Below are positions 17,101-60,672 of a stretch of 64,000 bases of DNA, in pieces (the first letter of the stretch is position 1; each line of letters opens with the position of its first letter). The position numbers and the translations under genes are program-made. The stretch is from contig CM114271.1 of the NCBI GenBank assembly GCA_050084515.1, forward strand, positions 31,682,001-31,746,000, given 5' to 3'. Source of the stretch: Blasia pusilla. Lineage: Eukaryota. The notes under the pieces are model-generated. The model was not told where the DNA came from. It saw only the letters and a list, made by a program, of their open reading frames with translations, and did not search any database.

Positions 17101-17255
17101 TATTTCTATAGAAGGTCTGATGGTTCAAGTCCAAAATGGAGTTATTAATTTTTGAGGTTTTTCTCACAACTCCATTTTGCTTGAAACTTGGCAAAAGTAG
17201 AACATGCACCTTGGGGACCATGTTGGCGAAATTTTAGCTCAAGATGGGAAAGTTG
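14130..17255. repeat. ~180-bp tandem satellite array, left block (~17 monomers)
   Basis: The motif ccatttttcttgaaactt...cagctcaagatgggaaagttggacaagatgaaaaatgaaaaaacc...ggttcgggtccaaaaagg recurs at 14141, 14321, 14476 (short unit), 14656, 14839, 15018 and onward. Confidence 0.95.
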
Positions 17256-21369: not shown

Positions 21370-23105
21370 AGTTCGATGAGATGAAAAATGAAGAAACCTT
21401 ATTTTGATAGAAGGTCTTATGGTTCGGGTCCAAAAGGACTTGCCACTTTTTGAGCTTGTGGTCTCAACTCCATTTTTCTTGAAACCTATCAAGATTGCTA
21501 GATGCACCTTAAAGACCATTTGGGCCAATTTCAGCTCAAGATGGGAAAGTTAAACAAGATGCAAAATGAGAATTTTGATAGAAGATCTGATGGTTTGGGT
21601 CCAAAAAGGACTTACCAATTTTTGAGCTTGTGGTCCTAACTCCATTTTTCTTGACACTTGGAAAGAGTGCTAGATGCACCTTGGAGACCATGTGGGCAAA
21701 ATATAAGCTCAACAGAGAAAATTTGGACACGATGAAAAATGAAAAGACCTTCCTTTCATTCAAGCTTTAATGGTTTAGGTCCAAAAAGGAGTTATTAATT
21801 TTTGAGGTTCTGCTCGTAACTCCATTTTGCTTGAAACTTGGCAAGAGTGGAACATGCATCTTGGGGATTATGTTTTCCAAAGTTCAGCTCAACATGGGAA
21901 AGTTGGACAAGATAAGAAATGAAAATACGTCCTTTTCATTCAAGGTTTAATGGTTCAGGTCCAAAAAGGAGTTATCTCTTTTTGAGGTTTTACTCACAAC
22001 TCCATTTTCCTTGAAACTTGGCAATAGTGGAACATGTACCTTGGGGAACATGTGGGCCATATTTTAGCTCAAGATGGAAAGGTAAGACAAGATGAAAAGT
22101 AAAAAAACCTTATTTTTATTCAAGGTTTAGGGTTCAGTCCAAAAAAGATTTATTAATTTGTGAGGTTCTGCTCACAACTCAAATTTTTGTGAAACTTGGC
22201 AAGAGTGTAACATGAACTTTGGGAACCATCTTGGCCAAATTTCAGCTCAAGATGGGAGTGTTGGACAAGATGAAAAATGAAAAAATATTTTTTTGGTAGA
22301 AGGTGAATGGTTCGGGTCCAAAAATAAGTTATTAATTTGTGAGGTTTTGCGCACAATTCCATTCTTCTTGCAACTTGGCAAGAGTGGAATGTGGATCTTG
22401 GGGACCATGTTGGCCAAATTTTAGCTTAAGATGGGAAATTTTGACAAGATGAAAAATGAAAAAATCTTATTTTGATAAAAGGTCTAATAGTTCGGGTCCA
22501 AAAAGGACTTGCCAATTTTTGAACTTGTTGTTCCAACTCCATTTTTTTGGAAACTTGTCAAGAGTGTTAGATGAACCTTGAAGACCATGTGGGCCACATT
22601 TCAGCTAAAGATGGAAAATTTGGACAATATGAAAAATGAAAAAAAATTATTTTGATAGAAGGTCTTATGGTTCGGGTCCAAAAGGACTTGCCAATTTTTG
22701 AGCTTGTGGTCCCCCATTCCATTTTTCTTGAAACTTGGCAAGACTTCTTGATGCATCTTGGAAACCATGTGGGCCAAATTTCAGCTCAATATGAGAAATT
22801 TGGACAAGATGAAAAATGAAAAAAACCTTATTTCTACAAAAGGTCTGATGGTTCAGGTCCAAAAAGGACTTAACGAGTTTTGATCTTGTGGTCCCAACTC
22901 CACTTTGCTTGAAACTTGGAAAGAGTGCTAGATGCACCTTGGAGACCATGTGGGCCAAATGTCAGCTCAAGATGGAAAAGTTAAAGATCTTTTTTTCCAT
23001 TCAAGGTTTACGGCTTCGGGTCCAGAAGGTCAATTTTTAAGTTGTGGTCAAAACTTCATTTGGTTTGAGACTTTGCAAGAGTGATAGATGTAGCTTGGGG
23101 ACCAT
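21370..23105. repeat. ~180-bp tandem satellite array, right block (~9-10 monomers)
   Basis: Same monomer as 14130-17255; it resumes in register after the copia TSD. Confidence 0.93.
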
Positions 23106-26080: not shown

Positions 26081-27937
26081 GAAAGGAAGATAGTATGGCT
26101 CTAAGGCTCCTTGAAAATGAGGCGCAGTAAGAGGATAGGAAGAGAGGAAGAGAGGAGAGAGGAAGAAAGGAGAGAGGAGAGAGGATACTACCTTCAACCC
26201 AAAGAGATACAATTTTATGAAGAGAGCTTCCTGTGGTTTGAAGAGAGGAAATTTTTTTAGTGAATATTTTTGCAATTCTTCTGACTCTGCTCAGTCCCTT
26301 CCACATATTTTTTTTCCCTCTTCTCCATTGTGGCAACCCGTTTGAATCCGACAGGTTGCAAGTTGCAAATTTCCAAAAAAAACTTAACAATCATTGGAAT
26401 CAATAATGTGGAAGAAATCACTTTTTCCATCCAAGGTTTCGAACAAATCTATCATTTCGAATAGAGTTCAAGCTCACGATGAACATTTTGGAAATTTAAA
26501 GTACAATGTAAGATCTCATTTTGCATCCTCAAAGTGTTTTGTTTAAAATACTTCGCACTTCTTTGAGGGACAAAATTGGTTGGTGGATTCCTACTCCTAC
26601 CTCCGAATCTCTTAAAACTACAATCAATACATAGTACATGTGCTAACAAGGGAAATATCTTTTCCCAATTGTCTCTCTTTGGACAAAGTCATCATAGGAA
26701 CATGCGGGAAAGCAACAGATGTGTACCACATACACCCCTGTCACACTTGAATTCATAGTGTTGTTCTTGACCCAATACATCCTTCCTATTCCATTGCCAC
26801 TATGAACGTCTTTTGTGGTGATGATTTCCATGTTTGCCTCTCGAGCTTATGCGATTCGCTTTGCTCTCTACACCGTTGGCCTACACATTCTGGTTCTCTT
26901 CACCCCATTTCTTGACTCGAACACAAATAGTGGATTGAGATCATCCACCTTCTGTGGGTACATGTCAATATCAATCTTGGGTTGAATCCAAAATGCAAAG
27001 GTCTCTGTAATGCAAACATGCTCCAAACTCCCTCCGTCTACGAGTCTGAAACCGGCACTTGTAAGATTGTCCACTTCCTTCTGAGTGCAATTGGTACCTA
27101 CAGCAATGGGCCAAATCGTGGAGATATTCCCTGGAGCTCCAATGGCGGCCGGATAAGACTTTCGGAAAGCGCACGATTCATTGGGCAGAAGAAGTACTTC
27201 AATTGATCCGGGGTTGCTTCGAGAAATATGCCACCGCTTGAGGTTGCAATCCACCTCAATGACCAGAATCCCATACTGTTGAACTACCCTCGAGACTGTA
27301 TGGTGGGAAGTTCCAGCAACAGAGGGGTTTTGAAATAAAACATTCATTGCTTTTGCAAAAGATAGGTCAACTCGAATTTGGAAGCAGTCCGGTGTCTCCG
27401 AATACCTGAGCGGGGTAATTTCCTCATCCAAATCAATCATCGGATTCTTTCCTCGATGTGAGGCTTGACTTGCTTGAAGTCAATGTACTTATCAGGTCTC
27501 CAAGAGTCTCGTTCAGACTACTCTACAACCATCTATATGGGACGTCTTGAAACACGCCCACAAATGTCCCCACCAATGTGGACGTATTTCTCGAGAGGAG
27601 ATCCAGCTACGCACCAATTGAAAGCTTCCACATACAATTTCTCATCCCTAGATCTAACAGCAGCTAACATAGAGCTCGTAAATCGAAGGGTCCTTTCCCT
27701 TGGTTACGCCCTAAGTGAGGAAGATGTGGGAGGCTACTGATTGTAGCATTGCTCTTGCCTGGTCTTGTTGGCATGCCTTAACAAGAGATATTTTTTGAGA
27801 TGTATGTGATGATCTCCAAGAGAAATGGACACTCTCGGCTCCGCTTGTGTTGGGAAAGAGGGCGTTTTCGTGAATGTTAAGTCCCTACACACGAAAACTT
27901 ATCAATTGATGGAGGGAACGCCCAAGTGATGAATGCT

Positions 27938-28394
27938 TGCAACCCGTCGAGATCCGATGGGTTGCAAGATTAATTTATCTTGCTTTAAGTAACCTACAAC
28001 CCGTCGAAATCCGACGAGTTATACAATGAACTTTTTTCAGAAAAAATTTGCAACCCGTCAAATTCTAACGGTTTCTAAGATGATTTTTTTTCGCAAAAAA
28101 GTAACTTGCAACGCGTCGCATTGCGACGGGTTGCATGATGAATTTTTTTTGCAAAAAAATGACTTGCAAACCATCGGATTTTGACGGGTTGCATGATCAC
28201 CTTTTCTTTAAAAAAATTGCAACCCGTCGCATTCCGACGTTACTTGATGAACTTTTTTCAAAAAAAATTTGCAACCCCTTGTATTCTGACAGGTTGCATT
28301 GCAAACTTTGTTTGCAAAAGAGACGTAACCTGTCGATTCCGACGAGTTGCTTTACCCACCTAATTTGCAACCCGTACGATTTTGACGGGTTGCA
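27938..28394. repeat. Cluster 1 of the 29-bp palindrome (~9 copies, period mostly ~52-58 bp) inside the transposase intron
   Basis: Copies start at 27938, 27995, 28049, 28107, 28165, 28218, 28270, ~28324 and 28366. Spacers are A/T-rich and related to each other. Confidence 0.9.
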
Positions 28395-28647
28395 ACCTCA
28401 AACTTGGACCATCTACTTGGAAAAAATGGAGAAAAATCACTTGTCGCATAAAGTTTCCCCATTGCCTCATACGGACGGTCCACCAACTGAGCCACGAACA
28501 CAACGAACACATGCTTTCTCCACCACACATGAAGCTCTTCTTGGCACTCCATGGCTTGTTTCAAGGTTTTGCTATCCTTGCAATGTTGAAGTAGAGCTAC
28601 ATGCTCTGTTCTCTTAGTCTCCTTCATGCAGGATTTTGTGTAGCGAG

Positions 28648-31600
28648 TGTGAGAAAACAGAAAGTGACGAAATCACTGAAATCTTTACAAAACTTAGAGA
28701 TACAAAGTGGCCTAGTCTGTCCGTGCGCTCACAGAAGAGCTTAGATGGAATCTGAACATGGAGATAACTCGACATACGAGAATGCGCTACCGCTACGACT
28801 CCCGACTATTTCACTACTCGGGAAACTAGGGTTTTTACCTAATTTTCTTCGTTTCTATTAATAGAAAATTTTTGCACATACACCACGACAAAACCTAGGG
28901 TTAGATAATCCTAGTAACGCTACTCCTGAAACCACCTACGTCATATTACTATGACTCCTTCAACGTCTAAGTCGGAACCATCAATCTAAGCTTCTCCTTA
29001 TACAAGGGGGGATCAGATTAATGGTGCTCAGAGAAGTGGATGTTGAGAATCCAACACCTCCCCTCAATATCCACTCTCATGTGCACTACTATCTTGGACC
29101 TATGCCAGACTTGAGGATGTCGGTGAAGCGATCTCGCTCAAAGCGTCGTGAGATGTCTGCACGGTTATCCTCTGTTGGACAATAGACTAACTTCAAAACC
29201 TCTCTTTCGATCAATTCACGAATAAAATGATACTGGATCTCTATGTGCTTCGTACGAGCATGAAACACAGGATTATGTGCAATGGCAATGCAACTCTGAT
29301 TGTCACACCATATTACAATAGCACTCTCTGGTGCTTCTCCTATGTCCTCCAATAGCCATCTGAACCATACTGCTTCACAAGACGCATAACAAGCCGCCTT
29401 GTACTCTGCCTCGGTAGAAGAAAGATCCACTATAAGTTGCTTCTTGTTGACCCATGATACCACACCTGATCCTACCAAGAAGCAATAACCTGAAATTGAT
29501 CTTCGAGAATCTGAATCTCTTGCCCAATCCGAGTCACAAAAACCTGTCATTTCCGTCCCTGCTCCATAGGTGATGCCGTACTCGATAGTGCCTTTGATGT
29601 ACTTCAACACACATATCCCTGCCTTCTAATGGTTCTCATCAGGCTTAGTTGAGAACCTACTCCCACCGCGAAGCTAATGTTTGCTCTAGTCTTACACAAA
29701 AATATCAAACTGCCTACAGGCTTTCTGTAGAACTTTTCATCTACCAATGGTGAAACATCCTCCATCGAGAGTTTCAACTCTACCTCCATTGGGGAGATCA
29801 CTTCCTTACACTCAATCATCCCGAATGCCTTCAAGATTTCTTTAGCATACTTTTGTTGAGAGAGAAAAATAGAATGTGACTGTTTCCAAATCTCCAGCCC
29901 TATAAAGTAGTGCAAAAGACCTAAATCTGATATTTCAAACTCAGATTTCAACACTCCCTTCATTTCCTCTATTTTCTTACTGTGGTTTCCTGTGATGATA
30001 AGATCATCCACATACAAGACTATCAACATATACATCCCATCTTCGCAAAACACATACAAATTTTCTTCTGACGGACTCTTGATGAGACCCTTCTCTTGGA
30101 AGAATGTATCTATTCCTTGATACCATACCCTTGGGGCTTGCTTCAACCCATACAATGCTTGATGAAGTAAACACACTTTCTCTTCTGATCCGGGTATCTC
30201 AAAACCAGGTGGTTGAGATACATACACCTCCTCCTTCAGACTCCCGTTCAGAAAGGAAGACTTCACATTGTATTGGTATACAAGCCAACGTCTTGTTCGT
30301 GCAACCGCTAGAACAATTCGAATGGTTGTCATACTTGCAGTAGGAGCAAAAGTCTCATAGTAGTCAAAACCTTCGATTTTTTAGCATCCTTGTGCAACCA
30401 ACTACGCTTTGAATTTATCCAATGTACCATCCGACTTGTACTTGGTCTTGTACACCCACTTGGTGCGTATTATCTTCCTGTCCTTTGGCTTCTCAACCAA
30501 AGTCCAAGTTTCATTTTTGTGAATAGCGTCCATCTCTATCTGCATGGCCTCTCTCCATTGAGGATGAGCAAGGGTCTCATCCAAGCATGATGGATCTTCC
30601 ACCTTCAAGACCTCTATCATCAAGGCCATGTTGACGAGATATGCGGAAGCTCTATTTTGCTCCTCTAGTCTCTTGGATCTCCTTGGATGTGTAACAACTT
30701 CATCAGTTGCTGGTGGATCCTTACCATCCAAGAGCTGCTTTATCCACTTAGGGTATGACGACGGTAGTGGAAGAGCAGGTTGCTCTTTATAATCATCACC
30801 AAATTCTTCTTCTTGATGATCTAGTGTAAACATTGGTGGTGTGCTTTAGTGGGTTATCTCTTCGTTTGATGATAATGTGGACGGACCTCTGATTTCCGCC
30901 AATTGACGAGGCAATTCTTGGAACATCACATCACGACTCACAAGCATCTTCTTTGCCTCAGGATACCAAAGGCGATAAGCTTTAGACTCATCACTGTATC
31001 CCATAAAGATGCACTTACTGCTCTTGGACTCACTACAAAGCACTCACTACCAAAAGTCCTGAAATGTTGGACTAATGGTACCTTACTTGAGTATGATTGA
31101 TGAGGAGTCATGCCTTGCACTGACTTGGTAGCACTCCTATTTAGAATGTAAACGGAAGTAGTAACATCTTCAGCCCAAAATCCTTGTGTCAAACCTTTTT
31201 CTTTAATCATACATCTTGCCATCTCCACCATTGTACAGTTTCGACACTCAACAACTCCATTTTGTTGTGGTGTATGTGTCGTGGTTAACTGTTGCTTGAT
31301 TCCATGATCCCCTAAATATTTTTTGAATTCTATTGATAAGAATTCTCCTCCTTGATCGGTGCGAAGCTTTTGTACCTTCTTTCCTGTCTCATTCTCAACC
31401 AGCTTGTGCCATACTTTAAATTTTCCAAAAGCACTTGCCTTATCACGATCACATAATATTGCTACTAAAATCAAATTTTGCTTCAACTCTAGTACGTACA
31501 GTACATCAGTTAACTTCTTTTCATCTTCTTTTTGTGAGACTAAAGAAATTGTGCCTTTCCCTTCTACAGGGCACTTTGCATTATTCCCAACAGTAACAAC

Positions 31601-33126
31601 GATGGGCTCTGAGAGGTGTGAAGGAGCTATACCAATCCTTATGATTGGTCATATGCCTAGATGCTCCACTATCGAGCACCATGCATCTTCACTCTTTGAC
31701 TTAGTGGAATTTTCTGCCTATGTGCAAAACTCTTCAATTGCTACCCAAACATCTACTTCATGTTCTTCTAGTTCTCCAGAATTTCTAGACTCCTTCTTAG
31801 GTCTTAAACAACCGTTCTTCTCATCCTGACTCCTCTTTCTACAATCTTTGATAAGATGACCTAGCTTACCACAATAAAAGCATTTGAAGGTTTTCCTTGG
31901 AAATTTCTTCTTCATATTTGAACTATAATCCTGATTTTTAACTCTCTATACATTGGCAGTAAATGTTGCATCACTTCCCTCTCTTGCTTTGAAGCACATT
32001 TCCTCTTCTACCAACATTGCACTAAATTGTTCAAAAGTAAGCGGTGTGGGTCTTACTTGAGTATTCAATGCAGTGACCAAACTATCATACCTTGGAGGCA
32101 AAATCCTTATGCACCAACGTGCCAAATCTTCACTGGACTTTGAAATTCCCACGGATGCCATATGATCTTGAAGATTTTTTATCCTTGTCAAAAATTGCTC
32201 CACGCTTTCGCCTTCTGAAAATTTCTCAGACGTAAGCTGATTCTCGAGATTTTGAATCCAAGTCTCATTCCTCGTTTCATACTGATTCTTCAGAATTTTC
32301 CACGCCTCAGCAGCAGTGGCTATATGTTGAATGAGAGTCATGACAGAATCAGTTACATTCGTGACAATTGCATATAGAGCATCAGCGTTTTTGCGTTTCC
32401 ATGCCATCAATACAACATGATCGATATTACCAGCTGAAGATGAACATGTAGAACTCAAAGTAGCTTGTGGATTCGAATCGACCCTTGTGGCCGTCTCCGA
32501 GATCTCAAATGATTCGAGGACAGTTCTCATTTTGAACTTCCACAATATATAGTTAGACCTATCTAACTTCCCTTCACCCAGCAAAGCAGGGCGAGCACGA
32601 ACTGGCGAAGAAGTATCCATCTCTAAAGATTTTGTGCAAACACACTAGATCGCTAGATACAAAATACTGGAAAACCTACTACTCTCATACCATGTGAGAA
32701 AATAGAAAGTGACGAAATCACTGAAATCTTTACAGAACTTAGAGATACAAAGTGGCCTAGTCCGTTCGTGCGCTCACAGAAGAGCTTCGATGGAACCTGA
32801 ACATGGAGATAACTCGACATACGAGAATGCGCTACCGCTGCAGCTCTTGACTATTTTACTACTCGGGAAACTAGGGTTTTTACCTATTTTTCTTCATTTC
32901 TATTAATAGAAAAATTAATAGAACTCTATATTAGATTAGGGTGCCCCACACCCTGATGCAATATAGGGTTAGATAATCCTAGTAACGCTACTCTTGAAAC
33001 CACCTACGTCATATTACTATGACTCCTTCAACGTCTAAGTCGGAACCATCAATCTAGGCTTCTCCTCATATAAGGGGGCCGGTCAGATTAATGGTGCTCA
33101 GAGAATTGGATGTTAAGAATCCAACA
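28648..33126 (-). mobile_element. Ty1/copia family A copy 3 (both LTRs present; internal deletion of the GAG-pre-integrase/integrase N-terminus)
   Basis: Perfect TSD GCGAG at 28643-28647 and 33127-33131. LTRs at 32693-33126 and 28648-29056; PBS 32681-32692; PPT 29057-29068. ORFs: gag 31946-32620, integrase 30938-31486, RT 29604-30332, RNase H 29089-29610. Confidence 0.96.
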
Positions 33127-34676
33127 GCGAGTCAGAGACTGTTGCCAATGGAAAGCATCCGATCTTTCCCTTTCCGGTTGAACTTCCCCCAAGAACACTT
33201 CCCTGATCGCAATCCATCCTAGTTGGGCATTGTCCGCCATGAAGCCATATATTTCAGGAGGAAGTCTTTTTTTTCCTTCACCACCTCCAGTAAGAGTAAC
33301 CAACACACCTTCAAGCTGCCAACATCGCTTTCATCTCACAAATAAAAATGGTTTTGAGACCCTTCTTCACATGATCGTAAACGTATGCACCCATGGTCAA
33401 CCATCCATTTAACACCCTGTAGCAAATATCAAAGCTAACCTAGCTCCCAAATATATCTTCTCCCTCCCTCATTCTGTCAATAAGATCGAGGATGCTAGAC
33501 AGGCCTGTAGTAGATATTTTGAAGACATAAGCTCTAGATCCCTCGTTTCCTTAGCCCATGAACTGCCATCTCTGAATGAATGGAAACTGTAAGTTGGCCT
33601 TGATCCTAGAAATAGCATCCATCTCCGAGGTCTTTCCATTAAGTATTCATATTTAACGCAGTAAATTCTTGAAGCTTTCAAGATCAACCAAGAATGCAAG
33701 ATTTTCCCACACTTGCTTCTCCTCAACTGCCATTGGCTAGGGATACCCAGCAGTTGTTCATAAATTTGTGATACAGTTGTCAATTCGATTACTCCTAGCT
33801 TTGATCCTGGAGAATTTTTGTACACCTTGGCCACTTTCTTTGCCACATCCTCCTTGATGTATCTCTTAATCGCACCCGTAACATGATGAGTGTGACACCC
33901 AACATGAATTTTTAGCCTTGTGTACTCAAACGTAGAACTGTAGTCTGGCACTATGAAAAAAATATAAGTCGGACACGCTCTAACACAAAAAGGGTAGGCT
34001 TGACACTTCAGACATCGATGGCCACCCAGCAGTATGGTCCTACCCACGGCGTAAGGAGTTTCTGCATTTTTGGGATGGAATTGGGAAGAATTCACAACTT
34101 TGTTCCTCTCAAGGATGGGGCATCCTGGACTTCTGTACTCTAAGGCTCCAACGCATTGGCAACGAGACACAATCCAAGGACCACCTGGGATTGAAGCGCT
34201 TGTCGGCTGGAGTCTGCACCATCGATTACAGTCCAATTTTTGGTCCACACCCTTCAAGCGACCTCCGTCTTTCTTTTGAGAAGGACCGACAAGTGGAGGC
34301 AGCTCAAAAATGCAGTCTCTAGCATACGTTGCTGGCAGCTCATCAAATCAGAGTGAGATAAAATGTTCTTCGACAATTGCATGAATGTCATGAGGTTGGG
34401 CTTGAATTATCTCTAATTGAGGAAGGCTTGCTAGATGACTGCCACATGTGAGCTTCACATAATTGTCCATTTGGGTGAGATCCAGAATGATTGCCAAGAT
34501 AGAGAATAAGAATGAGAATAAGAATGTTGAGTTTACTGTGAACACTGTCCATTTAAATTATGACAGAATATGTCTGACATATAGTTGGTAGTTAGGTTGA
34601 ACCATCGCCAGGTAACTGCACCTACGAGAAAGGAATATTCGGACATGCTGGATTCGGCAAGCTTCCTTGAACCCGG

Positions 34677-35410
34677 GGAGTTCCCCTTGAGTCGACATTC
34701 CAACCCGTCCGGCTTCCTGGAATGTCGACTCAAGGGGAACTCCAACCCGTCGCAGTCCAATGGGTTGGAAACTGTCAAAAGGGATGTCGACGGAACCAAC
34801 CCTAAACCCTAAACGCATGTCAATGAGTTGAATTGAGTTTGGATGGAACGGTACAACCCATCGGAGTCCGACCGATTGGAATATGAACGGCCTCAAAATG
34901 GCGCTCCCTTAGGCACTCAGTTAGGCAGCCTGGGTTCCGTGCAAGTCGTTGGAGTCTGACAGTTTACACGAATCAAGATGAATGGTCCTTGTGCAAGCCG
35001 TCGGAGTCTGACGGGTTGCAGGAAGTGGAAAAGATGAATGGCCCACGTGCAACCCGTCGGAGTCCGATGGGTTGCACAGGACCCAAGCTGGATGGACCTC
35101 GTGCAGTGTATTGATTTTGATTACGATTTGAAGGGCCGGGGACTGTCTGATTAAAAAAGGTAAAATGCACATCGCCTCCCTCAATTGCCCAGTTTACACC
35201 CTTCCATTGGGTTCTTTTTTCTCTCAGTGCAGTGCGAGGAGACCGGCGGGGGACTTTTTTTATCTGACAGTCCGTCGGGGTCCGTCCGGTTGTAGGAATT
35301 GAGCTGGATGAACCCCGTGCAACCTGTCAAAGTCCAACGGGCTGCTTGTCGGTTCGGCTCTACTGCCCAAGCGTTGCAGAATCAACCTTTCAGGCTCCGA
35401 TGGGTTGCAG
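34677..35410. repeat. Cluster 2 of the 29-bp palindrome in the divergent intergenic region, plus a perfect 26-bp inverted repeat (34677-34702 / 34718-34743)
   Basis: Copies at 34741, 34852, 34940, 34992 and 35048, with degenerate ones at ~35265-35410. Confidence 0.85.
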
Positions 35411-35757
35411 GCAGACCACACAGAACATGCACCGTAACGCTCCATCATCATATAACCGGTTCCCCGTCGTACACCAACGGTCGAATCCAACAGCTCTGAA
35501 AGTATATAAGGACCAATTTCGAGGCTTTTCACTTTTCCATTCTACACTTTTCCGCGTTTTTTCCAACTCCCCCGTTCACACGACTACTAAATCTGACTTT
35601 CCAGTTACTCAGACATTTAGATGGTTGGTCGTTGTCTTTTCATTTGGGGGCTACAACAGTTAGTGACGACGGTTTGAGTTGATCAATTCTTTTCAGAGGA
35701 AACCATGATTGAGGTCAAAACCCTTTGCGCAACGTTCGATTCTGGACTTATTTCAGG

Positions 35758-38112
35758 ATGAATAAAAAAAAAAGCCAAGCCAGCAAGGTCAGGAGCTTCT
35801 CGCCCAAGTCTGGCGGAACTCCGTCTTCTGTAACGCAGCGCGCCCGTATATGTAAAGCAAGAGAAAATCGAGCAGTGCGAGCGGAAACCAAAATGAGGAA
35901 GCATGAAATGTTGGCAAAACTATCTCTAGAGAAACTCGCGAAGCAAGAGGAGAAGCGAGAAGTGAAATTGCTTACGAATGCGGAGAAGGCCGAGAAGAAA
36001 CGCATGGTGGCAGAGATCAAGCACAAAAAGGCTAGACGTCGCCTTTCAGAAAGCTGAATTGGCAAAAGTCAAGAAGGAAAAGGCAATCACTATAGAAGAA
36101 GAACCCTCCCTACGACCCACCGAGAGTGTGGAAATGGAGGATGTGTCATCCATGAGGTCAAGTGGTCCAATGCACGAGACCAACACCGACGAGCTTCCCG
36201 AGACCAACAAGGAGGTTGTTAGAACCCCGAGTGTCGAGATCATGGAGATCTCAGAAGGAGAAGGAGAAGAATCTTCTGCATCTCAGAAGCCTGTTGAAGA
36301 ATTTGATCTCTTCAAAATTGAAGAGTTTCCAGTAGACTTGCTGGAGTAGGCTCCAGAGCAGCTTCGCTGAACTTGATACGGCCCAGTTTTTTAGCGGATA
36401 AGCATTGTTCTATAGTTCTCTCTGCATTGTATCAGTGCCAATCATTTGGAAAATTTGAATTCACAATGTGACATTCTTGCAAGTGGTGAAGCAAATGGCC
36501 TTGGTGGATGGCCCGAATGCCCCGAGGATGCCTCTTTTCTGACTCCAAACGATGGAATACGTCAGAGAAATCCAATCGGAGGAAGACATTGACAAGTTGA
36601 AGCGGTCTGTGGCAATAGCTTCATACGTTGATAGCTTCCCACCTTTCTATGTTCAACCGTATGATGAGCATGGAACCCAGGCTTTGGTAACGGAGGAAGA
36701 TCTGGAGAGTATCGATGCTTTTTTAAGGCTGAGGGACCTGGAGTTCCGGAAGGTAGTGGCAAGAACCCAGTACAAGTGGATACAAAACTGGTATTTTTTA
36801 ATTTGGGATGGCAACCTCCGATTCAAGGCGTGGTTGCAGTTTGCAACAGAGCGTCCAAACTCCCTTGAGGCTCACTTCTACGTGAGGGCGGTGGTCCTCC
36901 TTCCCTACCCGAATCACATGGCCATGGTGGAAATGGCCATGCACTCCATGAACACGTAAGTATCCTAAATCTTTTCTTCATGAAAATGAACCGTTTTTGA
37001 CTCATCGTACTCAAGAATCAAGTCATCATTAACAATAGCTGCAACCCGTCGAAAGGTGACGGGTTGCGGGAGGAAGAACTTGCTGGCGTATTTGCAATCC
37101 GTGGGACTCTAACGAATTCCTTTTGGCCGTCTATTGAGTTGCCTAGCAACTCGTTGGAGTCCGACGGGTTGCACAATCTCAAGTGTGGCCATCCCACTAG
37201 GACAGGGCCTACAACCCGTCAGAGTCCGACGGGTTGCAGTTTCAGGAGAGGGCGTGGTTTGAGTGGCCGATCATGCAACCCGTCGGACTCCGACGGGATG
37301 CATAATCTTTACAAAAGGAGTCTTGCTTGGGGCTGCTGTGCAACCAGTTGGTCTCCGACGGATTGCAAAGCCACGTAGACCCAGACCTTCTGCAAAGAAC
37401 ATTCAACCCGTTGGACTCCGACGGGTTGCAAAACCACTCAAACCAGGCCCTATCCTACCTCATATGCAACCCGTCGGACTCCGATGGGTTGCAAACCACT
37501 CGACCAGGGTTTTTCCAACCGCATATGCAACCCGTCGGAGTCTAACGGATTGCAGGGCTAGTCAAACTTGGCTATCTGCACTACAATTTGTGCAACTGGT
37601 CGGACTCTGACGGGTTGCAAGTGAAAAAACTATCGTCAAAATCCTGAACCCGGATGCAAACATAAAATCCGATGTGGGTGGCTTTGCAAACCGTCAGTTT
37701 CCGACGGATTGAATTTTTGAATTTACTGTACTCGAGGTGCTTTCCGATAGACTCTGACGAGGTGCAACCCAACCCCGGATGGTCCCGGATGCAAATCGTC
37801 AATTTCCAACAGATTGCAGGGAATAAGATTTTGGAGCAACCCATCGGACTCCAACGGGTTGCAAATAGTTGTCGTTTAGTTCATATGCTTCCAACCTGTC
37901 AGAAATCGACGAGTTGCTAGTTGTAAATTTTCTTACTTCTCATTGATGTTTGCAGCATTGTGTCCGAAGGGAATGTTACCCATCAGTGGATCCAGGAATG
38001 CGACCGAGTGAGGAAGGTTCTTACAACGCATCCGTCGCAATACAAAGGAATCCTCGGAATTCAAACATGGAATAGTATTGATTGGATGGGATATTTCAAG
38101 CATTTTGCATGA
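35758..38112 (+). pseudogene. Spliced gene with a basic/acidic low-complexity N-terminus and a ParB/sulfiredoxin-like domain; intron 36956-37955
   Basis: ORF 36552-36959 has YFLIWDGNLRFKAW, matching the ParB/Srx xxDGxHR signature with H>L. The donor ac|GTAAG at 36956 and acceptor TTTGCAG|c at 37955 give the in-frame continuation TIVSEGNVTHQWIQECDRVRKVLTTHPSQYKGILG. Upstream there is a frameshift and stops. Confidence 0.6.
37040..37918. repeat. Cluster 3: regularly interspaced 29-bp palindromic repeats (~15 copies; core of 8 copies with 32-36-nt spacers) inside the ParB-like gene intron
   Basis: Core repeats start at 37145, 37210, 37274, 37339, 37402, 37465, 37526 and 37591. The consensus TGCAACCCGTCGGA(C/G)TCCGACGGGTTGCA is a 14+1+14 palindrome. 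Confidence 0.93.
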
Positions 38113-38573
38113 AGAGTCAATAGTCCATAATCTCAACCACATCTTCTGAGAAGTTAAACCCTGAAGGGCACAAGAATCTATTGACACCATAGTCAGAGTC
38201 TTTATTAGAACCTTTCATTGAGATGAAATTAGTTTAGGCCCGGTCAAATTATCTGCCGATGTTCCTCCAACAATAATACCCCTTAGCCCGGCTTATTATA
38301 GAGCTGGCTTAGACAAGGAATGTGAAGAAAATTGGGCTCACATGGAGAGTGATGGAAGGATGTTTACAGTGGTCTTATGATGTCTACTTCTTTTTCCAAG
38401 GATGGAAAAAGAAGGTTAGTTTAGGCTCGAATGTGGTCCACTTGCTACTCTCTTCTAAAGATTTCATGAATTTGAATCAAACAAAATTTCAAAAATATCA
38501 AAAAGTTTTGAAGAGAGGAGGTGAATTCTGCCTTTTTCTTTAAAGAGAGACTCTCCTCTCTTCCTCTCCTCTC

Positions 38574-39153
38574 TTACTCTCTACTGCCAAAATACCAACC
38601 CCTTGACAATCCACCTTCGTGATAATTGCGTGATGACGCTCGTGGTGATGAAGCTTCCTCTCTTGCTCGTTTAAGGTGTGAGGGTGGGGTTATACTATCT
38701 TCTTCTCTTGGTCTCTTATCTCTTCTCAAAGACCCATCATCCACATCGCGATACTGAATCTCCATATCCTTCATCAACTCAGCCACTTTGAGTTGAACAA
38801 ATACCTTGCTCACTAACTTCCTCTTCTTCTTGGGGAGGTCTTCTTACTTTCGGACGCCATTGAACAAAGCCCAATCCTTTGTCCACAAATTCTCTTCCAC
38901 TTTCCTTGCAAATTCTCTAATCGCACGTCTCGACCACTTCAGCCGCGAATTTTTGAACTCTCCTTTCAAAACTTGTGGGTTAATGGGGCTATCCAAGTGC
39001 GCCTTCAATTCATCTTCCGTGATGAATTACGAGACGGTCTTCTTGTTCACCTTCGGAGGCATCTCTGGTGTTGATGTATCAAGGGGATCTTCCCTTCTTC
39101 CATCGTCCTCATTGTCGTGAGGGATACGGTATTCATGAGGTGGCAACTCCATC
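38574..39153 (-). pseudogene. Degenerate ORF of unknown function (about 190 codons, two in-frame stops)
   Basis: ORFs 39027-39227 and 38574-38813 lie in one frame, joined by FITEDELKAHLDSPINPQVLKGEFKNSRLKWSRRAIREFARKVEENLWTKDWALF. Confidence 0.35.
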
Positions 39154-41299: not shown

Positions 41300-42042
41300 T
41301 AGGTAATTAATCCCTAAACCCCCCCTCCATATGTACATTTTTGGGGCCCCTTGTGGGCCTTTCCCTTATGGGTTTTACCCAAAAGGGAGAAAAGGGGAGG
41401 GAAGGGGAGTGCAGCCAAGTTCAAACTTGGCCCCAACCACTCCCAGATCGTCACGTATTCCCGCGGGGTTCGCGGGATGCGGGCTCCATACGGGCTCCAC
41501 GCGGGCGCCAACGATTGGGCCGTTGACGGTGAGACCAACGGTGGGCTTCCATGCCAGCTTCGGTAGGCGGTGCCATATGACGCAGGCTCAAGGCTGATTG
41601 GGCTAGGGCTAGGCCGGGAAGGTGGAGGCTCCAAGCGGGCAGGTGCGGGCTAGGGCGGGCAGGCGCGGGGTAGGGCGGGCAAGCGTGGGCTCAAGGCATT
41701 CAAGTGCGGGCTCCACGCAAGCAGGTGCGGGCTCAAGGCATTCAGGTGCCCGCTCCAGGCAGGCAGGCGCGGGCTCAAGGCTGATTGGGCGTGGGCTCTG
41801 GACAGGCAAGTGCAACCTCCAAGTGGGGAGACGCAGGCTCTAGGCGGGCAAGGCGCCGGCTTGAGGGCCCGCAAAAATTTGGTCCGTTGGACCAAAAGAT
41901 GTTGTGCCGAACCAAAATTTGCGGGCCACGCAATGGGTGCAGGCTTGAATGCCGGCCTCGGATACGCGGGCCTGTACGGACATGTCTGTCCATAAGATGG
42001 ACATAAGTCCGCGGACACGGACATTGTCAATGTGCAACCTTG
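41300..42042. mobile_element. Terminal region of a longer hAT-related element (GC-rich subterminal repeats plus TIR)
   Basis: Ends ggacataagtccgcggacacggacattgtcaatgTGCAACCTTG, matching the MITE end at 7670-7717. Repeated gcgggctcaagg units occupy 41580-41800. The partner end was not found. Confidence 0.6.
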
Positions 42043-42440
42043 TGTATGGCTGAGGGTTTAGGATGTAGGGCAAATGGCTTAGATTTAGGGCTTAAGGTGT
42101 ATGGATTAGACTTATGTTTAAGGCTTAGGGCGTATCGCTTAGGGTGGAGGATGTATGGCTTAGGATCCATGGCTTACCCATGAGGGTGTAGGGTGTATAA
42201 CTTAGGGTCTAAGATGCATGCACTATAGGGTTTATGGCATAAAGCTTAGGGTTTAGGGCTTATCCCTTAGGATGCAGGGCGTATGGCTTTGGTTGAGGAG
42301 CTAGAGGCTTAGGGATTATCGTTTAGGGCATATGACTAAGGACTTAGGGTTTAACATGATTTATGGCCAATGAATTAATAGGGCATAGCTTAAGGGTTTA
42401 TGGTTTATGATTTACGGTTTATGGCTTAGGATTTAGGATG
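42043..42440 (+). repeat. Degenerate interstitial telomere-like (TTTAGGG-derived) tract
   Basis: Run of ~7-nt units such as tttaggg, cttaggg, tttatgg, tgtaggg and tttagga. Confidence 0.7.
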
Positions 42441-44374: not shown

Positions 44375-47300
44375 GTCCACAACTTGACCTAACACCTGTC
44401 TGTAGGATGCCTCTGCCATCATACGCACCGTCGTCGTAAATGTAGAGAACCCCATAGCTCTCTCTCGCTTGTCAACGTTGGGCTCCACTAGTGTACTTTC
44501 CTGCTCATCCCATATCATGCCCGGTCCTCCCTGACGAAAAGCATGAGATGACGGAAAACTCACCAATGTGGCCAATGCTGCCCTCTGTTGACCCTCCTGA
44601 TTGGCCACTGCCACCGGTGGTAGATGGTCGCGAGTAACAACTTGAGATCGCTGCCCTGGATCCAAGATTATATCCACTATAAGTAGTGATGGTCTCTCGA
44701 CTCCATTATAAGCCCGCCTTAGCAACTCGGAAGGTAAAAGGTGTAGAAAACTGCTAAAGAAGCATAACTGGTGGGAAACGGCTCTCACACTTACACACCA
44801 CCATGGAGAACGAAATTTTGCAATAAGAGAAAATGAGTGGAGGCTGGTCTCCTTCTCAATTATATAGGGTATGTACAAGCAACCCTAACCCTAATCTTAA
44901 CCATAATCTCAAGTTAGACTAATTGTGATTAACTAACCATGGTTAAGATAATCACGCTTAAGTGACTAACCAAGATTAACCTTTCTTACTTCGTATGAGT
45001 AGCAAATGTAGCAATTTAGGTATCTCATGAGCTTTAATGTAACTCAACCTTCAATACTTCCCCTCAAGCTCATATCGATATCTCTAACGCCCAAATTTTT
45101 TCTAAACATCTCAAACTTATCTCTAAACAATGCCTTTGTAAAGATGTCAGCAATTTTCTGATCTGTACCTATATGCACAAGATCAACATCTCGTGCAAGC
45201 ACTTTCTCTCTAATAAAATGATAGTGCATCTCAATATGCTTTGTACGAGCATGAAACACAGGGTTATTAGCAAGTTTGATGCTACTAATATTGTCTGCAT
45301 ATATTACACTAGGTTCTAAGTTACTAACATCAATCTCAACAAGTAATCAACGAAGCCACACTGCCTCTCATGTTGTATTGATTGCTCCTCTGTATTCAAC
45401 CTCTCTTGAAGATAAAGCAACTGTAGGTTGCTTCTTTGAAGCCCAACTTATAACTACGCTTCCCAAAGTAAATGAATAACCAGATGTGGAGTGTCGATCA
45501 GACATGCTTCATGCCCAATCAACATCTATGAATCCCTACAATTGTAAACTCAGAGAAGGTTCAAATTGAAGCCCAAATTGAACAAAGAATTTCACATACC
45601 GCATAATCCTCCTCATGGCATCAAGGAGAGATTTTCGAGATGCTTGCATAAATTGGCTCACTAGACCAACTGCACATCTCAAATCTGACTTGACTATAAT
45701 TAGATAGATCAAACTTCCAACCATGCGCCTCTACATATTAGAATCTGCAAGAAACTCTCCTTCATCCACTCTTAGCTTCACACTATGGTCCAACGTTGTA
45801 GAGATTGGCTTACAAGCCGTCATACGATATTTTGAAAGCATGTGAAGAGCATATTATCGTTGTAGTAATCACATGCTCTCTCCAACCTTGATAAACTTAA
45901 CACCAAGAAAGTACTTGAGTTCTCCCAAGTCCTTCATATCAAATTTTTCTTGTAATTTTAGCTTGACTTGTTGTACCATATCCTCAGTACTCCCAGTAAT
46001 CAAGAGGTCGTCAACATACAACACAATGATAACCGTATGATCTTGTCCTCTCAAGACATATAACAAAGAGTCAGAATCACATACCCAAAAACCCAACTCT
46101 CGTAAGACATATGTAATCTTGCCATACCAAGCTCTAGGAGCTTGTTTGAGCATGTATAGAGCTTTCTTCAACCTGCATACACAAAATGGAAACTCAAGAT
46201 GCTCATATCCAGGTGGTTGAGTCATATATACCTCCTCATATAGATCTCCATTCAAGAAGGCATTCTTGACGTCCATGTGATGTAAACTCCACTTCTTACT
46301 TACTGAACTTGAAGGGTAGTTATCATATATGCATGATGTGTCGCAAAGAAACCTTTATTTATGAATCTATGAACAGGATGTGTGACTCTACTTGATCTAC
46401 AAAGTTTTTGTTTAGAGGTAGATGCCTCTCACACCTTACTCGAGCTCTACAATGTTTGTTGGTTTACAATTATATTGTCCCCCTCAACAGACAAGTTTAG
46501 AGGTGGAATAGGTTCAAATGGAGCATACCGTGACTTTAGCTCATCAAAGACAACATCGCGACTAATAATAAGATGCCGAGAGGATGGAATGTAGCACTTA
46601 TACCCCTTAGTTCCATCAGCGTAGCCATTGAATATATATCTTTCATATTTGGGATCTAATTTTTGACATCTTTTAGAAGGAAGATGAGCATAACAAATAC
46701 AACCAATACTTTCAGGAAGGAAAAATCAGGTTTACTTCTTGTGAAGACTTCGAATGGAGTCTTATCATGAACTCATGCTGTTGGAGTTCGGTGGACTAAG
46801 AAGCCTATACACACTACAGCCTTTGCTCAATACACCTTAAGCATGTTCTTCTCATTCATCATAGCTCGTGCCGCCTCAGAAATATGTCGATTCTTCCTCT
46901 CAGCCACTCCATTTTGTCGTGGGATGTAACGGCAAGTCACTTGACGTTGGATGTCATTCTAATGTAAGTAGTCATCAAACTTTGTTGAAAGATATTCTCC
47001 TCCTCCATCACAACGCTATTTCAGAATGTGTTCTCTAGTCTGCTTCTCTACTAGAACTCTGGATCTTTGGAATACTGAGAATACCTCTGGCTTGGATTTC
47101 AGAAAGTATACCCATATATACCTAGAGAAGTCATCAATAAATGAAACAAGTACTGGCAACCACTAAGGCCATATTGTGATTCTGTCTAGAAATCATTGTG
47201 AATCAACTCCAATATCTTGGATGCAAGATATGTATGGTCAAATTGACCAATAAGTCACAAATGTGTGGCATAAGAGAATTGGACATATGAATCTTCAAAG

Positions 47301-50150
47301 ATTACAGAGTCTTTCATCATCTAATCTAGTAATAGGACTTCCTCAATTAGCAAGTCTTGCTACGTTAGAGGTATGTCCTGCTTGCCAATTTGGAAAACAA
47401 GCTAGATTTTCTTTTCCAAAGCAAGATAGAAGAGCATCCAAGATATTGGAGATCTGTGACTTGTTGGCAAGTTTGACCATACATTGTTGTCTGATACTAT
47501 TGGAACTTTGCTGGTAAGCATGATATGCTGTTGAATGTCATCTCCTGTGAGCACAATTACAAGATCTTTCACTGGCTCCATACTACTGAACCATTTAGCT
47601 TGTGAGGTTATGTGATTTGATGCACCAGAGTCAATATAACAATCTACTGTCGGGTCTGTCTTGACCATTGCTCTCATATGATGAGTCATGATCAAGAGAT
47701 GCTCAATTTGTGAATATTTTTGTTCTTGGTACAGCCCTTGGTGTTGTTGCTCCACATAGTTTTGTTGCAGTCAGGCTCATATTCTCATATCTGCCTTCTT
47801 CTTGAAATAAAACTTTGCATAGTGATCCTTTATCCCACAATAATTTCAAGATCTAGGGACCCTTTGTTGCTGACCTTGACCCCAATAATTTTCACCATCA
47901 CCAAAATTTTGGTGGTGATGGTGAAAATGGAGGAAGAGGCACTCAATATAGTATCACTCAATCAACTACGAATCAGTACCAAACACAATCACAAGGTCTT
48001 GATTCATAGTTGATTGAGTGATACTATATTGAGTGCCTCTTCCTCCATATGTTTGATATCCACCACAACCACGGAAGCTTCTACCACAACCTCTGCCTTT
48101 ATTTGATCCATAACCTGCAAATAGCGCACTCTCTTGTAGACTAGACGAGCTACCGCTACCTACTAGATGCATCTCTTCACTGATTAACAATGGGACTAAC
48201 TCTTGAAAGGTTTGATATTTCTTTCTCACATAGATAGAGGTCTCAAATGACTTGTAATCCTTTGGAAGGCCTTAAAAAGTAAACAAAATCAGATCATCAT
48301 CTTCACCTGTCACTCCAATGTTATTCAACTGATCAACAATATGTTTGATACTCGAAACATAATCATTGATGCTCTATGATCCTCTCCTCACTTCGTTCAA
48401 TTTTTATTTCAATTGAAGCTTTCTGGCCTTTGTAGATTTCTGGAAAAAAAATTCCAATACATCCCATGCCTCCTTTGGAATATCAACATCTTGAATGTAA
48501 CCTATCATTGGCAAACTGATCGTTATTGAAATGTAGTGGATTACTTGCGTTTGCGCGTTTGTTCCAGGCGCGAACATTCAAGTCTCCTGAGTCACCTTCC
48601 TCCTTAGCCTCATCTTTTGTGACAAGCTCCCATAGTTCTTAACCCATGAGAAATGATTTCATGCGAAACTTCCAAACATTGTAATTGTGCTTATCTAGCT
48701 TCTCGCTTGTGATTGTTGTTGAGGAATATTCCATGACGAATGATTTCACTCACAAAAAGGTAATTTCAAGCTCTCCACTGCTCCAATTGAAGCATAGACC
48801 ACTCCTACATAGAAATCGACCTAAAATTTGCCAAAATTGATCAATTGTATGAAAGAACTAGTCAAAATTGGCCTGTAGAGAGCAAACTGCACAACATTTA
48901 TCTCTAGCTACACTTTCCTACACTGAAATTGCTATTGCAAGAGCTCCGAATGTCAGAATCAAGCGATTTTGGATATGTTGGAAAGCTCTCAAGGATCTCT
49001 ACATGAAAATTAGAAAAAAAACCTTCAATATTGTTTTGACTGATGCGGACCTACATGGATAAATCGACTGGAAAAGCCCTAAAAATGCCTCCAAAGTTTT
49101 ATCACCGTCAAAGCTCACGTGAAATCTGCACCTACTGAGCTCTGAACGAAATTTCCTTCTCCCAAACTTAAATTTTTCCTTCTCTTGCCTCTCTTCTCTC
49201 CTCAAACACCAAGAATTTGAAGTGATGTTCTCCTATCGCTCTGATACCATGTAGAAAACTACTAAAGAAGCATAATTGGTGGGAAACCGCTCTCACAATC
49301 ACACACCACCATGGAGAACAAAATTTTGGAATGAGAGAAAATGATTGGAGGCTGATCCCCTTCTCAATTATATAGGATATGTACAAGCGAACATAACCCT
49401 TATCTTAACCATAGTCTCAAGTTAGACTAAATATACGTGATTAACTAACCCTAGTTAAGATAATCACGCTTAACTAACTAATAAAGATTAAGCTTACTTA
49501 CTTGTTGTGAGTAGCAAATGTAGCAGTTCCAGTATCTCATGAGCTTGAATGTAACTCAACCTTCAATAAAAGGTTTGTCCATCACAATCATGGACGGTAT
49601 GTGCGCGATCGAACACTTGCCGCATCCAACATCACGGCCGGTCCTATCCATGTCCACATTTGATGTACATTCGCCATCACTCAGGCTCGAGTGTCACCTA
49701 ACATTAGGATGTTCTCCAAGATATAGGCTGGAGAACATCTATGGGTAGTCTAAAAGAGTCGAAGAACTCGTAACATCTCCCAAACCATGGTCGGCCACGG
49801 GTCCTGCATACCAAGTTCTCGGAGAATGACTTTGACATGGCCACCCTGCCACCACCAAGTGTATCAGACCAACCCTATCCAAATCAGGCGCCCCTAATAA
49901 CGAAATGTCTGCCGAAAATATATATTGATATCTCCTAACTACAAACACTTGCAATAATTGAGGATACTGTTGGACGAGTCTTGACACATGACGTAATGAG
50001 ACTCTACGTGTAGTCTCATCCCTCTCAACATACAAGTAATGTTGTACTTATACTCCGGTCCGCAACACTGTAGTCAAAGTTGTACTAATCCCTCCAAAGA
50101 GATCTAGTATACGTACGTATACACCCTCCTCGGGATACTTCCACACAATT
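44375..50150 (-). pseudogene. C5 cytosine DNA methyltransferase domain of the gypsy element (interrupted by copia 44742-49568)
   Basis: Motif I ILDLFGGIS, motif II-like YLYVERD, motif IV AGWPCQ, motif VI YILENI, motif VIII RTYRP*L*WTNLL (continuing PSELLRRAY after removal of the copia), and motifs IX-X EPNVDKRERAMGFSTFTT...RQVLGQ. Confidence 0.8.
44742..49568 (-). mobile_element. Ty1/copia family B (degenerate, with internal inversions)
   Basis: Perfect TSD AAAGG. LTRs at 49250-49568 and 44742-45056; PBS tggtatcagagc at 49238-49249; PPT adjacent to 45057. Coding fragments: protease IDSGAS, RT MDVKNAFLNG...LYVDDL, RNase H FHARTKHIE. Confidence 0.93.
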
Positions 50151-50773
50151 GGTGTGGTGTCCAAGGGTATCAATGTCTCCACTCCTAGAGCATGTGGTAC
50201 CTCTGTCCCATCTTGCTCAAGAGCATAGGCTCAACTCCACGCCTACCTCATGATCTTGTTTGCTCTCCTATGTAAATCAATGCCCGTTCCGCACAAAGCT
50301 GAAGAAGTATCGCCAATAGCTGTAGCCAGGCTCGTCATCGCATGCCACTTGTTATGAATATCCTCTACAAGAGTATCCTCTGTATTGGCATTTCCCTCCA
50401 ATAAATCTCCAGGCCAACATAATATGCCACAATAAGCAAAACATGTGGTGGTCCACCCTCAAAGTGAACCATCAAGTCTTCTTGCATACTACACGGGTAG
50501 CTCAATGGCTCGTCCCTCACTTGATTGCCAAGCAGGTCGATAGGAGGCTCTCTCCTCCCAAAATTCAAGTGTGAACCCTAGAGGATACAATATGGTAGCT
50601 CCTACCAAAACATCATAAGACTCGTCCGATGTCACAACCGCTCGCGTCCGCACCATTGTACTATAAGTAGGATGATTGGGCAGAATCCTCACTACAATCT
50701 CATCGCGAATCATATGTAGTGTCATGGATGTGCCTTGCAATGAAGTCTAAATGTGGAATGGACATGGAGTGAT

Positions 50774-60346: not shown

Positions 60347-60672
60347 CTGCAAGAGGCAAAAGAGCAGACAATTAGAAGACCAGTATGTCTCCTCTGTAAA
60401 TTTTACAATTCTGACCATCCTTACCATTTCACTTTCCTCGCCTAAGTATTGGCTCTAATCAAAAGTAGTTATTTTCCCAACCTTCTGACCATACACACCT
60501 TGTACTGCTTGACAGTGTTAGAGACTGATGGGTGCAGAGTGCTGGAAGTAAGAGAAATAAAGGACCTGGTATCACAGCTGCTTATGAACTGTGAGTAACT
60601 TCAGAGGCTGATCTCAGTTGAACCCCAGACCATATAATAGCCTAAATAGTAGCTACAGAAAAAATAAGCTAC

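Follow-up and report, generated by a model that had tools for sequence, protein, structure and literature searches.

A ParB/sulfiredoxin-fold accessory gene and palindrome arrays in a Mutator-like transposon family of Blasia pusilla

Locus and features

The sequence analysed is a 64,000-nucleotide stretch of Blasia pusilla DNA (GenBank assembly GCA_050084515.1, contig CM114271.1, positions 31,682,001 to 31,746,000 of the forward strand), referred to below as the window. It contains a decayed copy of a high-copy DNA transposon, identified from its sequence features as Mutator-like, in which a minus-strand transposase-like gene and a divergent accessory gene are accompanied by arrays of a 29-bp palindrome. 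In fuller copies the accessory protein is about 1,200 amino acids long and is predicted to comprise a ParB/Sulfiredoxin (ParB/Srx) fold, a helical middle and a beta-class N6/N4 methyltransferase fold. An earlier sequence-only reading of the window is supported in its transposon setting, its splice junction, the DGNHR motif and the ParB/Srx fold; its load-and-spread proposal is a hypothesis, and it overlooked the fusion to a methyltransferase fold and the presence of arrays in all non-coding parts of the element. The surroundings are copia elements, telomere-like and satellite repeats and spliced genes, which is typical of a land-plant genome. The features of the element are as follows.

26110..26118, left target-site duplication, 9 bp, 8 of 9 positions the same as the right one
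26119..38601, whole decayed Mutator-like element, ends aligning with those of bounded sister copies
26119..38601, element termini, the left starting with G and GA-rich, the right CT-rich and ending with C, forming imperfect terminal inverted repeats
26598..27664, minus strand, last exon of the transposase-like gene, broken; SWIM zinc finger in sister copies (Pfam E 0.005, below cut-off)
27938..28394, palindrome array of 8 copies in the transposase intron, plus a single copy at 26332
28453..28666, minus strand, end of the main transposase exon, severed by a nested retrotransposon
28648..33126, minus strand, nested copia long terminal repeat (LTR) retrotransposon, outside the system; LTRs at about 28648-29056 and 32693-33126, 87% alike
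33127..34386, minus strand, main exon of the transposase-like gene, frameshifted; Cys-rich N-terminal part and D...D core
34741..35409, palindrome array of 8 copies between the two divergent genes
35755..36448, plus strand, first exon region of the accessory gene, broken; charged low-complexity N-terminus, span given by the tblastn match
36483..36955, plus strand, ParB/Srx-fold exon with a stop at 36540-36542, DGNLR for DGNHR and an acceptor reading CAA
36956..37955, plus strand, 1000-bp GT-AG intron in phase 2, whose equivalent on sister copy L051 is spliced in RNA reads
37040..37918, palindrome array of 15 copies, consensus TGCAACCCGTCGGANTCCGACGGGTTGCA, spacing mostly 61-65 bp in mid-array
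37956..38058, plus strand, remnant of the long exon, the remainder deleted including the methyltransferase fold
38066..38601, 3' terminal segment of the element, attached by the internal deletion
38602..38610, right target-site duplication

The sequence motifs from which the ParB/Srx fold had been proposed (FYVQP, FLIWDGNLRFKAW, VRAVVL and AMHSMN) share one reading frame at 36543-36956, and the CTC leucine codon of the window's DGNLR lies at 36816-36818. The splice sites, a donor GTAAG after the exon end at 36955 and an acceptor TTTGCAG before the exon start at 37956, lie precisely where they had been proposed and are in phase. The proposed in-frame second exon stands as to phase, but its homology to sister copies ends at about 38058; the stop at 38110-38112 is not a real gene end, because an internal deletion at that point fuses the exon to the 3' end of the element. 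This deletion removed 3.0-3.8 kb and with it the whole methyltransferase half. The palindrome array reported for the intron is present, with 15 copies at 37040-37918, but arrays are not confined to that intron. Further lesions are the in-frame stop, the upstream acceptor that reads CAA, the H-to-L change and the copia insertion in the transposase gene. The window copy is dead.

Transposon family

The claim of a transposon in eukaryotic DNA was borne out by a bounded element with target-site duplications and by sister copies. A search with the ParB exon gave 2,631 first-look candidates in the 390-Mb genome to which the window belongs (G000); the 150 that were scored are 69-84% identical to it, with the window excluded, and 20-kb views of ten copies revealed a common unit of 12-13.8 kb. 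The target-site duplications of six bounded sister copies are perfect over 9 bp in four, perfect over 10 bp in one and 8/9 in one. The 9-bp class, seen in the sister copies and in the window (8/9), agrees with the 8-11 bp given for Mutator-like elements (MULEs), several groups of which are without terminal inverted repeats (PMC6446971). The ends of the present element (G...C) have GA-rich and CT-rich subterminal repeats that are imperfect as terminal inverted repeats.

The product of the transposase-like gene is Cys-rich in its N-terminal part and has a D...D core and a weak SWIM finger. It showed no match to the Pfam MULE profile (PF10551) and no profile match to a canonical MULE family of its own genome. 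In a forced alignment the two aspartates and the xxH motif fell into register (z 1.1-4.0), with a D-D spacing of 67 vs 65. The Mutator-like assignment was made because of the duplication length, the SWIM finger and the motif order. No short non-autonomous derivatives were seen among 30 left ends with 1.5 kb of internal sequence. A search with the transposase found two relatives and no Riccia protein, and the matches listed in a search for sister families lacking the accessory gene are 36-40% identical to the query, like the family's own transposase. Copies are frequently nested in or adjoin one another (L039, L182, L185, L190 and L207), and at about 6450-7200 of locus L032 there is a segment 67-70% alike to the long exon, from a further, more diverged subfamily of the same genome.

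Palindrome arrays

The window contains 32 copies of the 29-bp palindrome (at most 9 mismatches), all at 26332-37918 and thus inside the element, compared with 0, 0, 1, 0 and 0 in five shuffles. They form five or six clusters, located in the transposase intron, in the intergenic space, in two of the introns in the accessory gene and in the 3' parts. Coding DNA, which makes up 51% of six bounded copies, holds none of their 214 palindromes. Perfect 27-bp copies number 424 in the genome (control 0), and the first 15 loci of perfect copies listed, some of them overlapping, are all in family DNA. Family-specific motifs are thus clustered in the non-coding DNA of the element, as in the VANC type of system discussed below.

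The palindrome consensus is equal in the two subfamilies except for the outermost base. The spacers are unrelated between subfamilies (0.34 vs 0.34 when shuffled) and inherited within them (0.60-0.88), and this constancy of the sites against their spacers indicates that the palindrome itself is selected. Array periods peak at 64-67 bp. Spacers resemble neighbouring spacers and include inverted duplicates, and are therefore not acquired guides. A perfect 26-bp inverted repeat with 15 nt between its arms is located at 34677-34743 of the window, at the start of the intergenic array. Many RNA reads cover a single palindrome at L051:4450-4513 and then continue in unrelated sequence, as if this palindrome were inside another transcript.

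Accessory protein

Most other copies carry the motif from which the window copy departs by one residue: among 28 other genomic copies read (30 loci were fetched, one being the window, and L012 was not read), DGNH is present in 27 and DGNHR in 26, and in a second, partly overlapping set DGNH occurs in 27 of 30. The GxxR phosphate-binding motif is thus present in the family as DGNHR, and the window copy has GNLR. An AlphaFold model of the intact exon of sister copy L020 (75% identical to the window) had a mean predicted local distance difference test (pLDDT) score of 88.7. In VIA-align this model matched KorB (Z 8.6, root-mean-square deviation 2.1, 91 aligned residues), PadC (Z 8.2) and sulfiredoxin (6.9); 13 of the 14 listed chains are, going by their titles, members of the ParB/Srx superfamily. 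ParB and Noc structures filled all of the top ten Foldseek rows, none at E ≤ 0.001, and a viral structure library gave ParB-like and ParB-methylase proteins at similar strength. On these model comparisons the exon belongs to the ParB/Sulfiredoxin superfamily by its alpha-beta fold, as the sequence-only reading had proposed from one motif. Sequence searches miss this relationship: there was no Pfam ParB match and no match among longer proteins by word search, and a PDB sequence search gave chance matches alone (E 0.25 or worse). An Atlas search placed a ParB_N cluster at rank 12 (score 0.92), which is a lead only. Fungal DUF3723 and viral DUF6551 clusters scored 0.90-0.91 against the exon in the same resource, and DUF3723 may be another eukaryotic ParB-fold family.

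In distant homologues the pocket retains an R in 21/24, the DGNHR arginine in 27/29 and a later N in 26/29, which by motif position match the phosphoryl-binding R54, R95 and N127 of Myxococcus ParB (PMC13229309). CTP specificity cannot be read from the sequence. A homodimer model of residues 160-520 of Riccia protein P0041 scored 0.32 (best control 0.00), exactly at a mark that is reached by 21 of 30 solved pairs and none of 23 single chains (17/29 and 0/30 for eukaryotes); contact agreement is at least 47% and pLDDT 53-57. In this model the helix after the conserved N meets the box-I region of the partner.

In fuller copies the gene extends through a long exon to a last exon with a weak match to PF01555 (N6_N4_Mtase, E 1e-4, below cut-off). 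Riccia protein models of 1,100-1,240 amino acids unite the ParB part, the middle and the methyltransferase part, and read through the same junction. The model of the methyltransferase part of Riccia P0042 (pLDDT 69) matched CcrM (Z 15.2), MboIIA (15.1) and PvuII (14.8), with a Foldseek E of 1e-10, and has the beta-class fold with motif IV before motif I. Canonical beta-class enzymes carry a catalytic (D/N/S)PP(Y/F/W) motif and FxGxG. Neither was found in the relatives read, which have D-[LIVM]-P-[S/T/E/R] instead: readable copies of the same genome have DLPS (17/21), DLPL (3/21) or DLPW (1/21), Riccia proteins DLPT, DMPS, DMPT or DIPT, and distant loci DIPE, DVPS, DVPR or DVPE. The S-adenosylmethionine (SAM)-binding motif is also off-canon (DLVGLSG, DFAGGWG, DITASTG). 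The odd motif is old and under selection rather than the product of recent decay, and methyltransferase catalysis appears doubtful.

Between the subfamily of the window and a younger one, the ratio of nonsynonymous to synonymous divergence (dN/dS) is 0.045 for the ParB part (133 codons), 0.030 for the middle (178 codons) and 0.042 and 0.035 for the methyltransferase halves (91 and 82 codons), with dS saturated at 1.7-2.6; these values indicate that the whole accessory gene is under strong purifying selection. The predicted junction is used in the family: on sister copy L051 the equivalent GT-AG intron is skipped by 1, 3 and 2 reads in three RNA runs (80% likeness), and read mates keep for the most part to one strand over the accessory gene and to the opposite strand over the transposase. 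Between 6 and 12% of each run was read, most reads are less than 95% alike, and the runs, chosen by species label, may come from a relative of G000.

Distant relatives

A phmmer search over 1.84 billion representatives gave 38 relatives, and the 28 looked up comprise 11 from Riccia sorocarpa, 2 from Adiantum and 15 without an organism. A full-length search gave 27 proteins, all from Riccia, with which the G000 protein clusters. UniRef labels three Riccia proteins (P0041, P0042 and P0050) trimethylguanosine synthase, a name that looks wrong because the predicted fold is that of a beta-class DNA amino-methyltransferase fused to ParB. Among viral contigs there was no relative (0/38 candidates), matches to a PHROGs DNA-methyltransferase were weak (E 2e-7 to 1e-5), and no prokaryotic relative was reached by the sequence searches. 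The single match among prokaryotic genomes, L247 (contig CADCWO010000058.1 in a cyanobacterial genome bin), holds a near-intact spliced gene with the same intron position, a methyltransferase half and four copies of yet another palindrome. It was rejected as a prokaryotic donor, as its GT-AG introns point to eukaryotic DNA in the bin, and the contig is most likely eukaryotic contamination.

A metagenome scan retained 78 loci at 24-41% identity. A related transposase is located upstream on the opposite strand in 8 loci (5 distinct), and the methyltransferase half downstream in 22. The G000 palindrome occurs in none of these distant loci, and 12 of 53 non-redundant ones contain 5-17 copies of their own different palindrome of 24-26 bp. 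Relative to the end of the ParB exon, most of these copies lie 0.8-3 kb ahead of it and about 2.0-2.5 kb beyond it; the count in six control stretches was 0-1. At least six different motifs were found, and motif type tracks protein clade, in a grouping in which some rows are frameshifted and L105 is unreliable. L135 is the sole locus in which the gene is accompanied by both a transposase and an array. Another kind of palindrome, of the GGAGTCAAA...TTTGACTCC type, is scattered around L137, L145, L147, L164 and L172 and may belong to another element.

Comparison with known systems

A close parallel in arrangement is VANDAL/VANC of Arabidopsis, a Mutator-type element with an accessory gene whose product, VANC, binds motifs in VANDAL introns and intergenic DNA; there too, short family-specific motifs are clustered in introns, intergenic and terminal non-coding DNA, and arrays turn over by duplication (PMC5735166). 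The VANC motifs differ in being 9 bp long and in one orientation, as against 24-29-bp palindromes here, and no ParB or methyltransferase fold is reported for VANC in the available part of that paper; anti-silencing, in the present family, is a proposal. Fusions of ParB to N6_N4_Mtase are enriched in phages (10.1101/2025.10.10.680097), and phage and prophage examples, including the ParB-Tls locus (PMC4738411), have the same two folds in the same order. The present gene differs from them in being spliced, in encoding about 1,200 amino acids with a long helical middle and non-canonical methyltransferase motifs, and in its location in a eukaryotic transposon.

With KorB, VirB, Noc and canonical ParB-parS the family shares the fold, the phosphate-binding R, R and N, clustered palindromic sites and, by a model that just reaches its mark, a homodimer. 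It differs from them in having DGNHR rather than GERR, in not keeping the hydrolysis residues, in that no helix-turn-helix or ParA partner was found, and in its setting in eukaryotic chromatin. The sites are also longer than parS, which is 16 bp. The absence of the motifs of a canonical ParB CTPase and a canonical methylase lowers the case for membership in those classes, not the likeness in working. Marchantia DN4MT1, rotifer N4CMT and the DIRS1 methyltransferase likewise have a prokaryote-derived amino-methyltransferase fold in a eukaryote, and no fusion to ParB/Srx is described for them in the available parts of the sources (PMC4738411, 10.1101/2021.02.12.428880). According to the same parts, DN4MT1 is a host gene with TSPPY, and DIRS1 is a transposon retaining a probably inactive methyltransferase, albeit of another class and in a retrotransposon.

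The literature searched contained no description of a plant transposon with a ParB-methyltransferase gene; the family could be listed in the repeat databases, the many subscription papers or the supplements of PMC4738411 and 10.1101/2025.10.10.680097 (whose ParB tree includes eukaryotes) that lay outside the search. Mutator-like elements with an accessory gene are known, and the protein and site system reported here was not found described.

Other features of the window

Besides the copy nested in the transposase gene at 28648-33126, decayed copia retrotransposons are present at 9208-13298, 17948-20607 and 45869-54551. Arrays of a 180-bp satellite at 14336-17255 (16 copies) and 21379-22982 (9 copies) flank a copia element, and at 41581-42440 a GC-rich 21-bp tandem repeat is followed by degenerate TTTAGGG-like 21-bp repeats. 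Exons at 4532-6440 (plus strand) and 60092-60454 (minus strand) presumably encode, from their translations, a polygalacturonase and a Rab-type GTPase, respectively.

Proposed mechanism and alternatives

The sites are symmetric, selected and family-specific, which implies that their binder is a dimer and a product of the element itself. The first candidate is the accessory protein, because other members of its fold load at palindromes with effects at a distance, and because it keeps the phosphate-binding positions and has a dimer model at the mark. It is therefore proposed, with a probability of about 0.4, that the accessory protein binds the family palindromes as a dimer and regulates the element, by analogy with VANC of VANDAL or with bacterial VirB and KorB; VirB is a ParB-family anti-silencer (10.64898/2025.12.19.695565). 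The protein would be the self-recognition factor of the element, its homodimer binding the two-fold symmetric sites and its ParB pocket using a nucleoside triphosphate (NTP), not necessarily CTP, as a switch by which it closes on, or assembles along, DNA and so acts across the 12-kb element. Its likeliest role would be to keep the element transcribable against silencing by host methylation, with the methyltransferase fold most likely serving as a non-catalytic reader of DNA or bases. Sites and protein would drift together from family to family, and the dead window copy could serve merely as a target in trans. A narrower form of this proposal, included within it, is an NTP-gated sliding clamp of phage origin that operates in plant nuclei, loading at its own arrays and spreading over the element, while the methyltransferase-fold module reads, shields or rewrites DNA marks. 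This form seems unlikely, and is lowered by the lost hydrolysis residues and by the failure to find a helix-turn-helix.

Several observations weigh against binding by the accessory protein. The fold match has a middling Z of 8.6 and no Foldseek hit at the 0.001 level. By motif position, the residues for CTP hydrolysis (Q52 and E93 in the Myxococcus ParB numbering of PMC13229309) correspond to a variable residue and an invariant N. The dimer score is just at the mark with low pLDDT, and may reflect memorisation by the predictor, as ParB dimers have been solved. Canonical ParB clamps have a central helix-turn-helix and a C-terminal dimerisation domain; in the middle region here no DNA-binding domain or helix-turn-helix was identified (Pfam none, Atlas no usable match). 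Fewer than five palindrome copies were present in 41 of the 53 distant loci, including 16 of the 25 with at least 2 kb upstream, and four of the five transposase-linked loci are among them, many loci being short or decayed. Agreement between motif and clade is expected from kinship alone. In addition, of 28 orphan ParB proteins that were purified, 17 failed to bind an NTP (10.1101/2025.10.10.680097), NTP-site mutants of a phage ParB activator were still functional (PMC13229309), and a Mutator transposase itself can bind and de-silence its own copies (10.64898/2026.08.24.746577).

This last point introduces the main rival binder. The transposase, through its Cys-rich N-terminal domain, may bind the palindromes for synapsis or self-activation, leaving the ParB-methyltransferase protein otherwise occupied or recruited by the transposase. 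Arrays are also located in the transposase intron and 3' of the transposase, and the AtMu1 transposase alone binds and de-methylates its own copies; the present arrays, however, are internal and not at the ends, where AtMu1 transposase binds (10.64898/2026.08.24.746577). The palindrome is absent from 25 loci of 3.3 kb of a canonical MULE family of the same genome, in which other palindromes were not sought. Co-variation cannot separate the two binders because both genes travel together, and binding by the transposase is judged somewhat unlikely. An active methyltransferase with an altered motif is a rather more doubtful proposition; it would write a self-mark of N4-methylcytosine (4mC) or N6-methyladenine on the element, at the palindromes or starting from them, blocking host 5-methylcytosine or licensing transposition, with the ParB part as a nucleotide-dependent regulator, as in the phage ParB-methyltransferase fusions. 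The beta-class amino-methyltransferase fold (CcrM at Z 15.2, Foldseek E 1e-10), the dN/dS of 0.035-0.042 on the domain, the Asp and Pro of motif IV retained in nearly all readable relatives and the finding that liverworts do make 4mC (10.1101/2021.02.12.428880) are consistent with it, whereas motif IV is without its aromatic residue throughout and the SAM motif is off-canon.

It is improbable that the ParB/Srx fold is instead a nuclease- or kinase-like enzyme (examples being SspE, GmrSD, Osa, SerK and Srx) that aids excision, repair or counter-defence, with a separate protein binding the arrays. DGxHR is nearer to these non-clamp members than to GERR, and the structural matches include Srx, SerK, SbnI, SspE, BrxU and Osa, but such members score Z 2.4-6.9 vs 8.2-8.6 for KorB and PadC, and the arrays would be left unexplained. 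Least credible is a role of the arrays as hairpins, of RNA or of single-stranded DNA, or as a source of CRISPR- or TIGR-like guide RNA. A 29-bp palindrome with a spacer of about 35 bp does resemble CRISPR, the intron folds far better than its shuffles (z -14.9), and changes on both sides number 388 vs 235 expected, a count inflated by kinship and methylation decay. A guide array was rejected, since spacers are inherited between copies and neighbour-like, and only 1 of 94, in the limited DNA that was compared, matched sequence outside arrays over 15 nt. The hairpin reading found no support either: G-U pairs in transcribed arrays show no consistent strand bias (15 vs 14, from clusters that are not independent), arrays also sit between genes, and there was no Rfam match. 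The G-U result points weakly to double-stranded DNA sites over RNA hairpins.

Biological significance

VANC raises the open question of how a single transposon protein locates an entire 10-kb element and relieves its silencing, and the candidate described here has a fold whose bacterial members load at palindromes, spread and counter silencing. With a candidate fold and with protein-site pairs that nature supplies in families, direct tests of binding, of nucleotide use and of spreading are feasible. Binding of the palindromes by the accessory protein, if true, would carry ParB switches beyond prokaryotes into the mobile DNA of eukaryotes, would mean that a phage-type ParB-methyltransferase gene was captured and long retained by a plant transposon, and could yield sequence-specific tools for epigenome work. 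The narrower sliding-clamp form, if true, would place load-and-spread of the parS/ParB type in eukaryotic chromatin across liverworts and ferns, with orthogonal protein-site pairs in each family.

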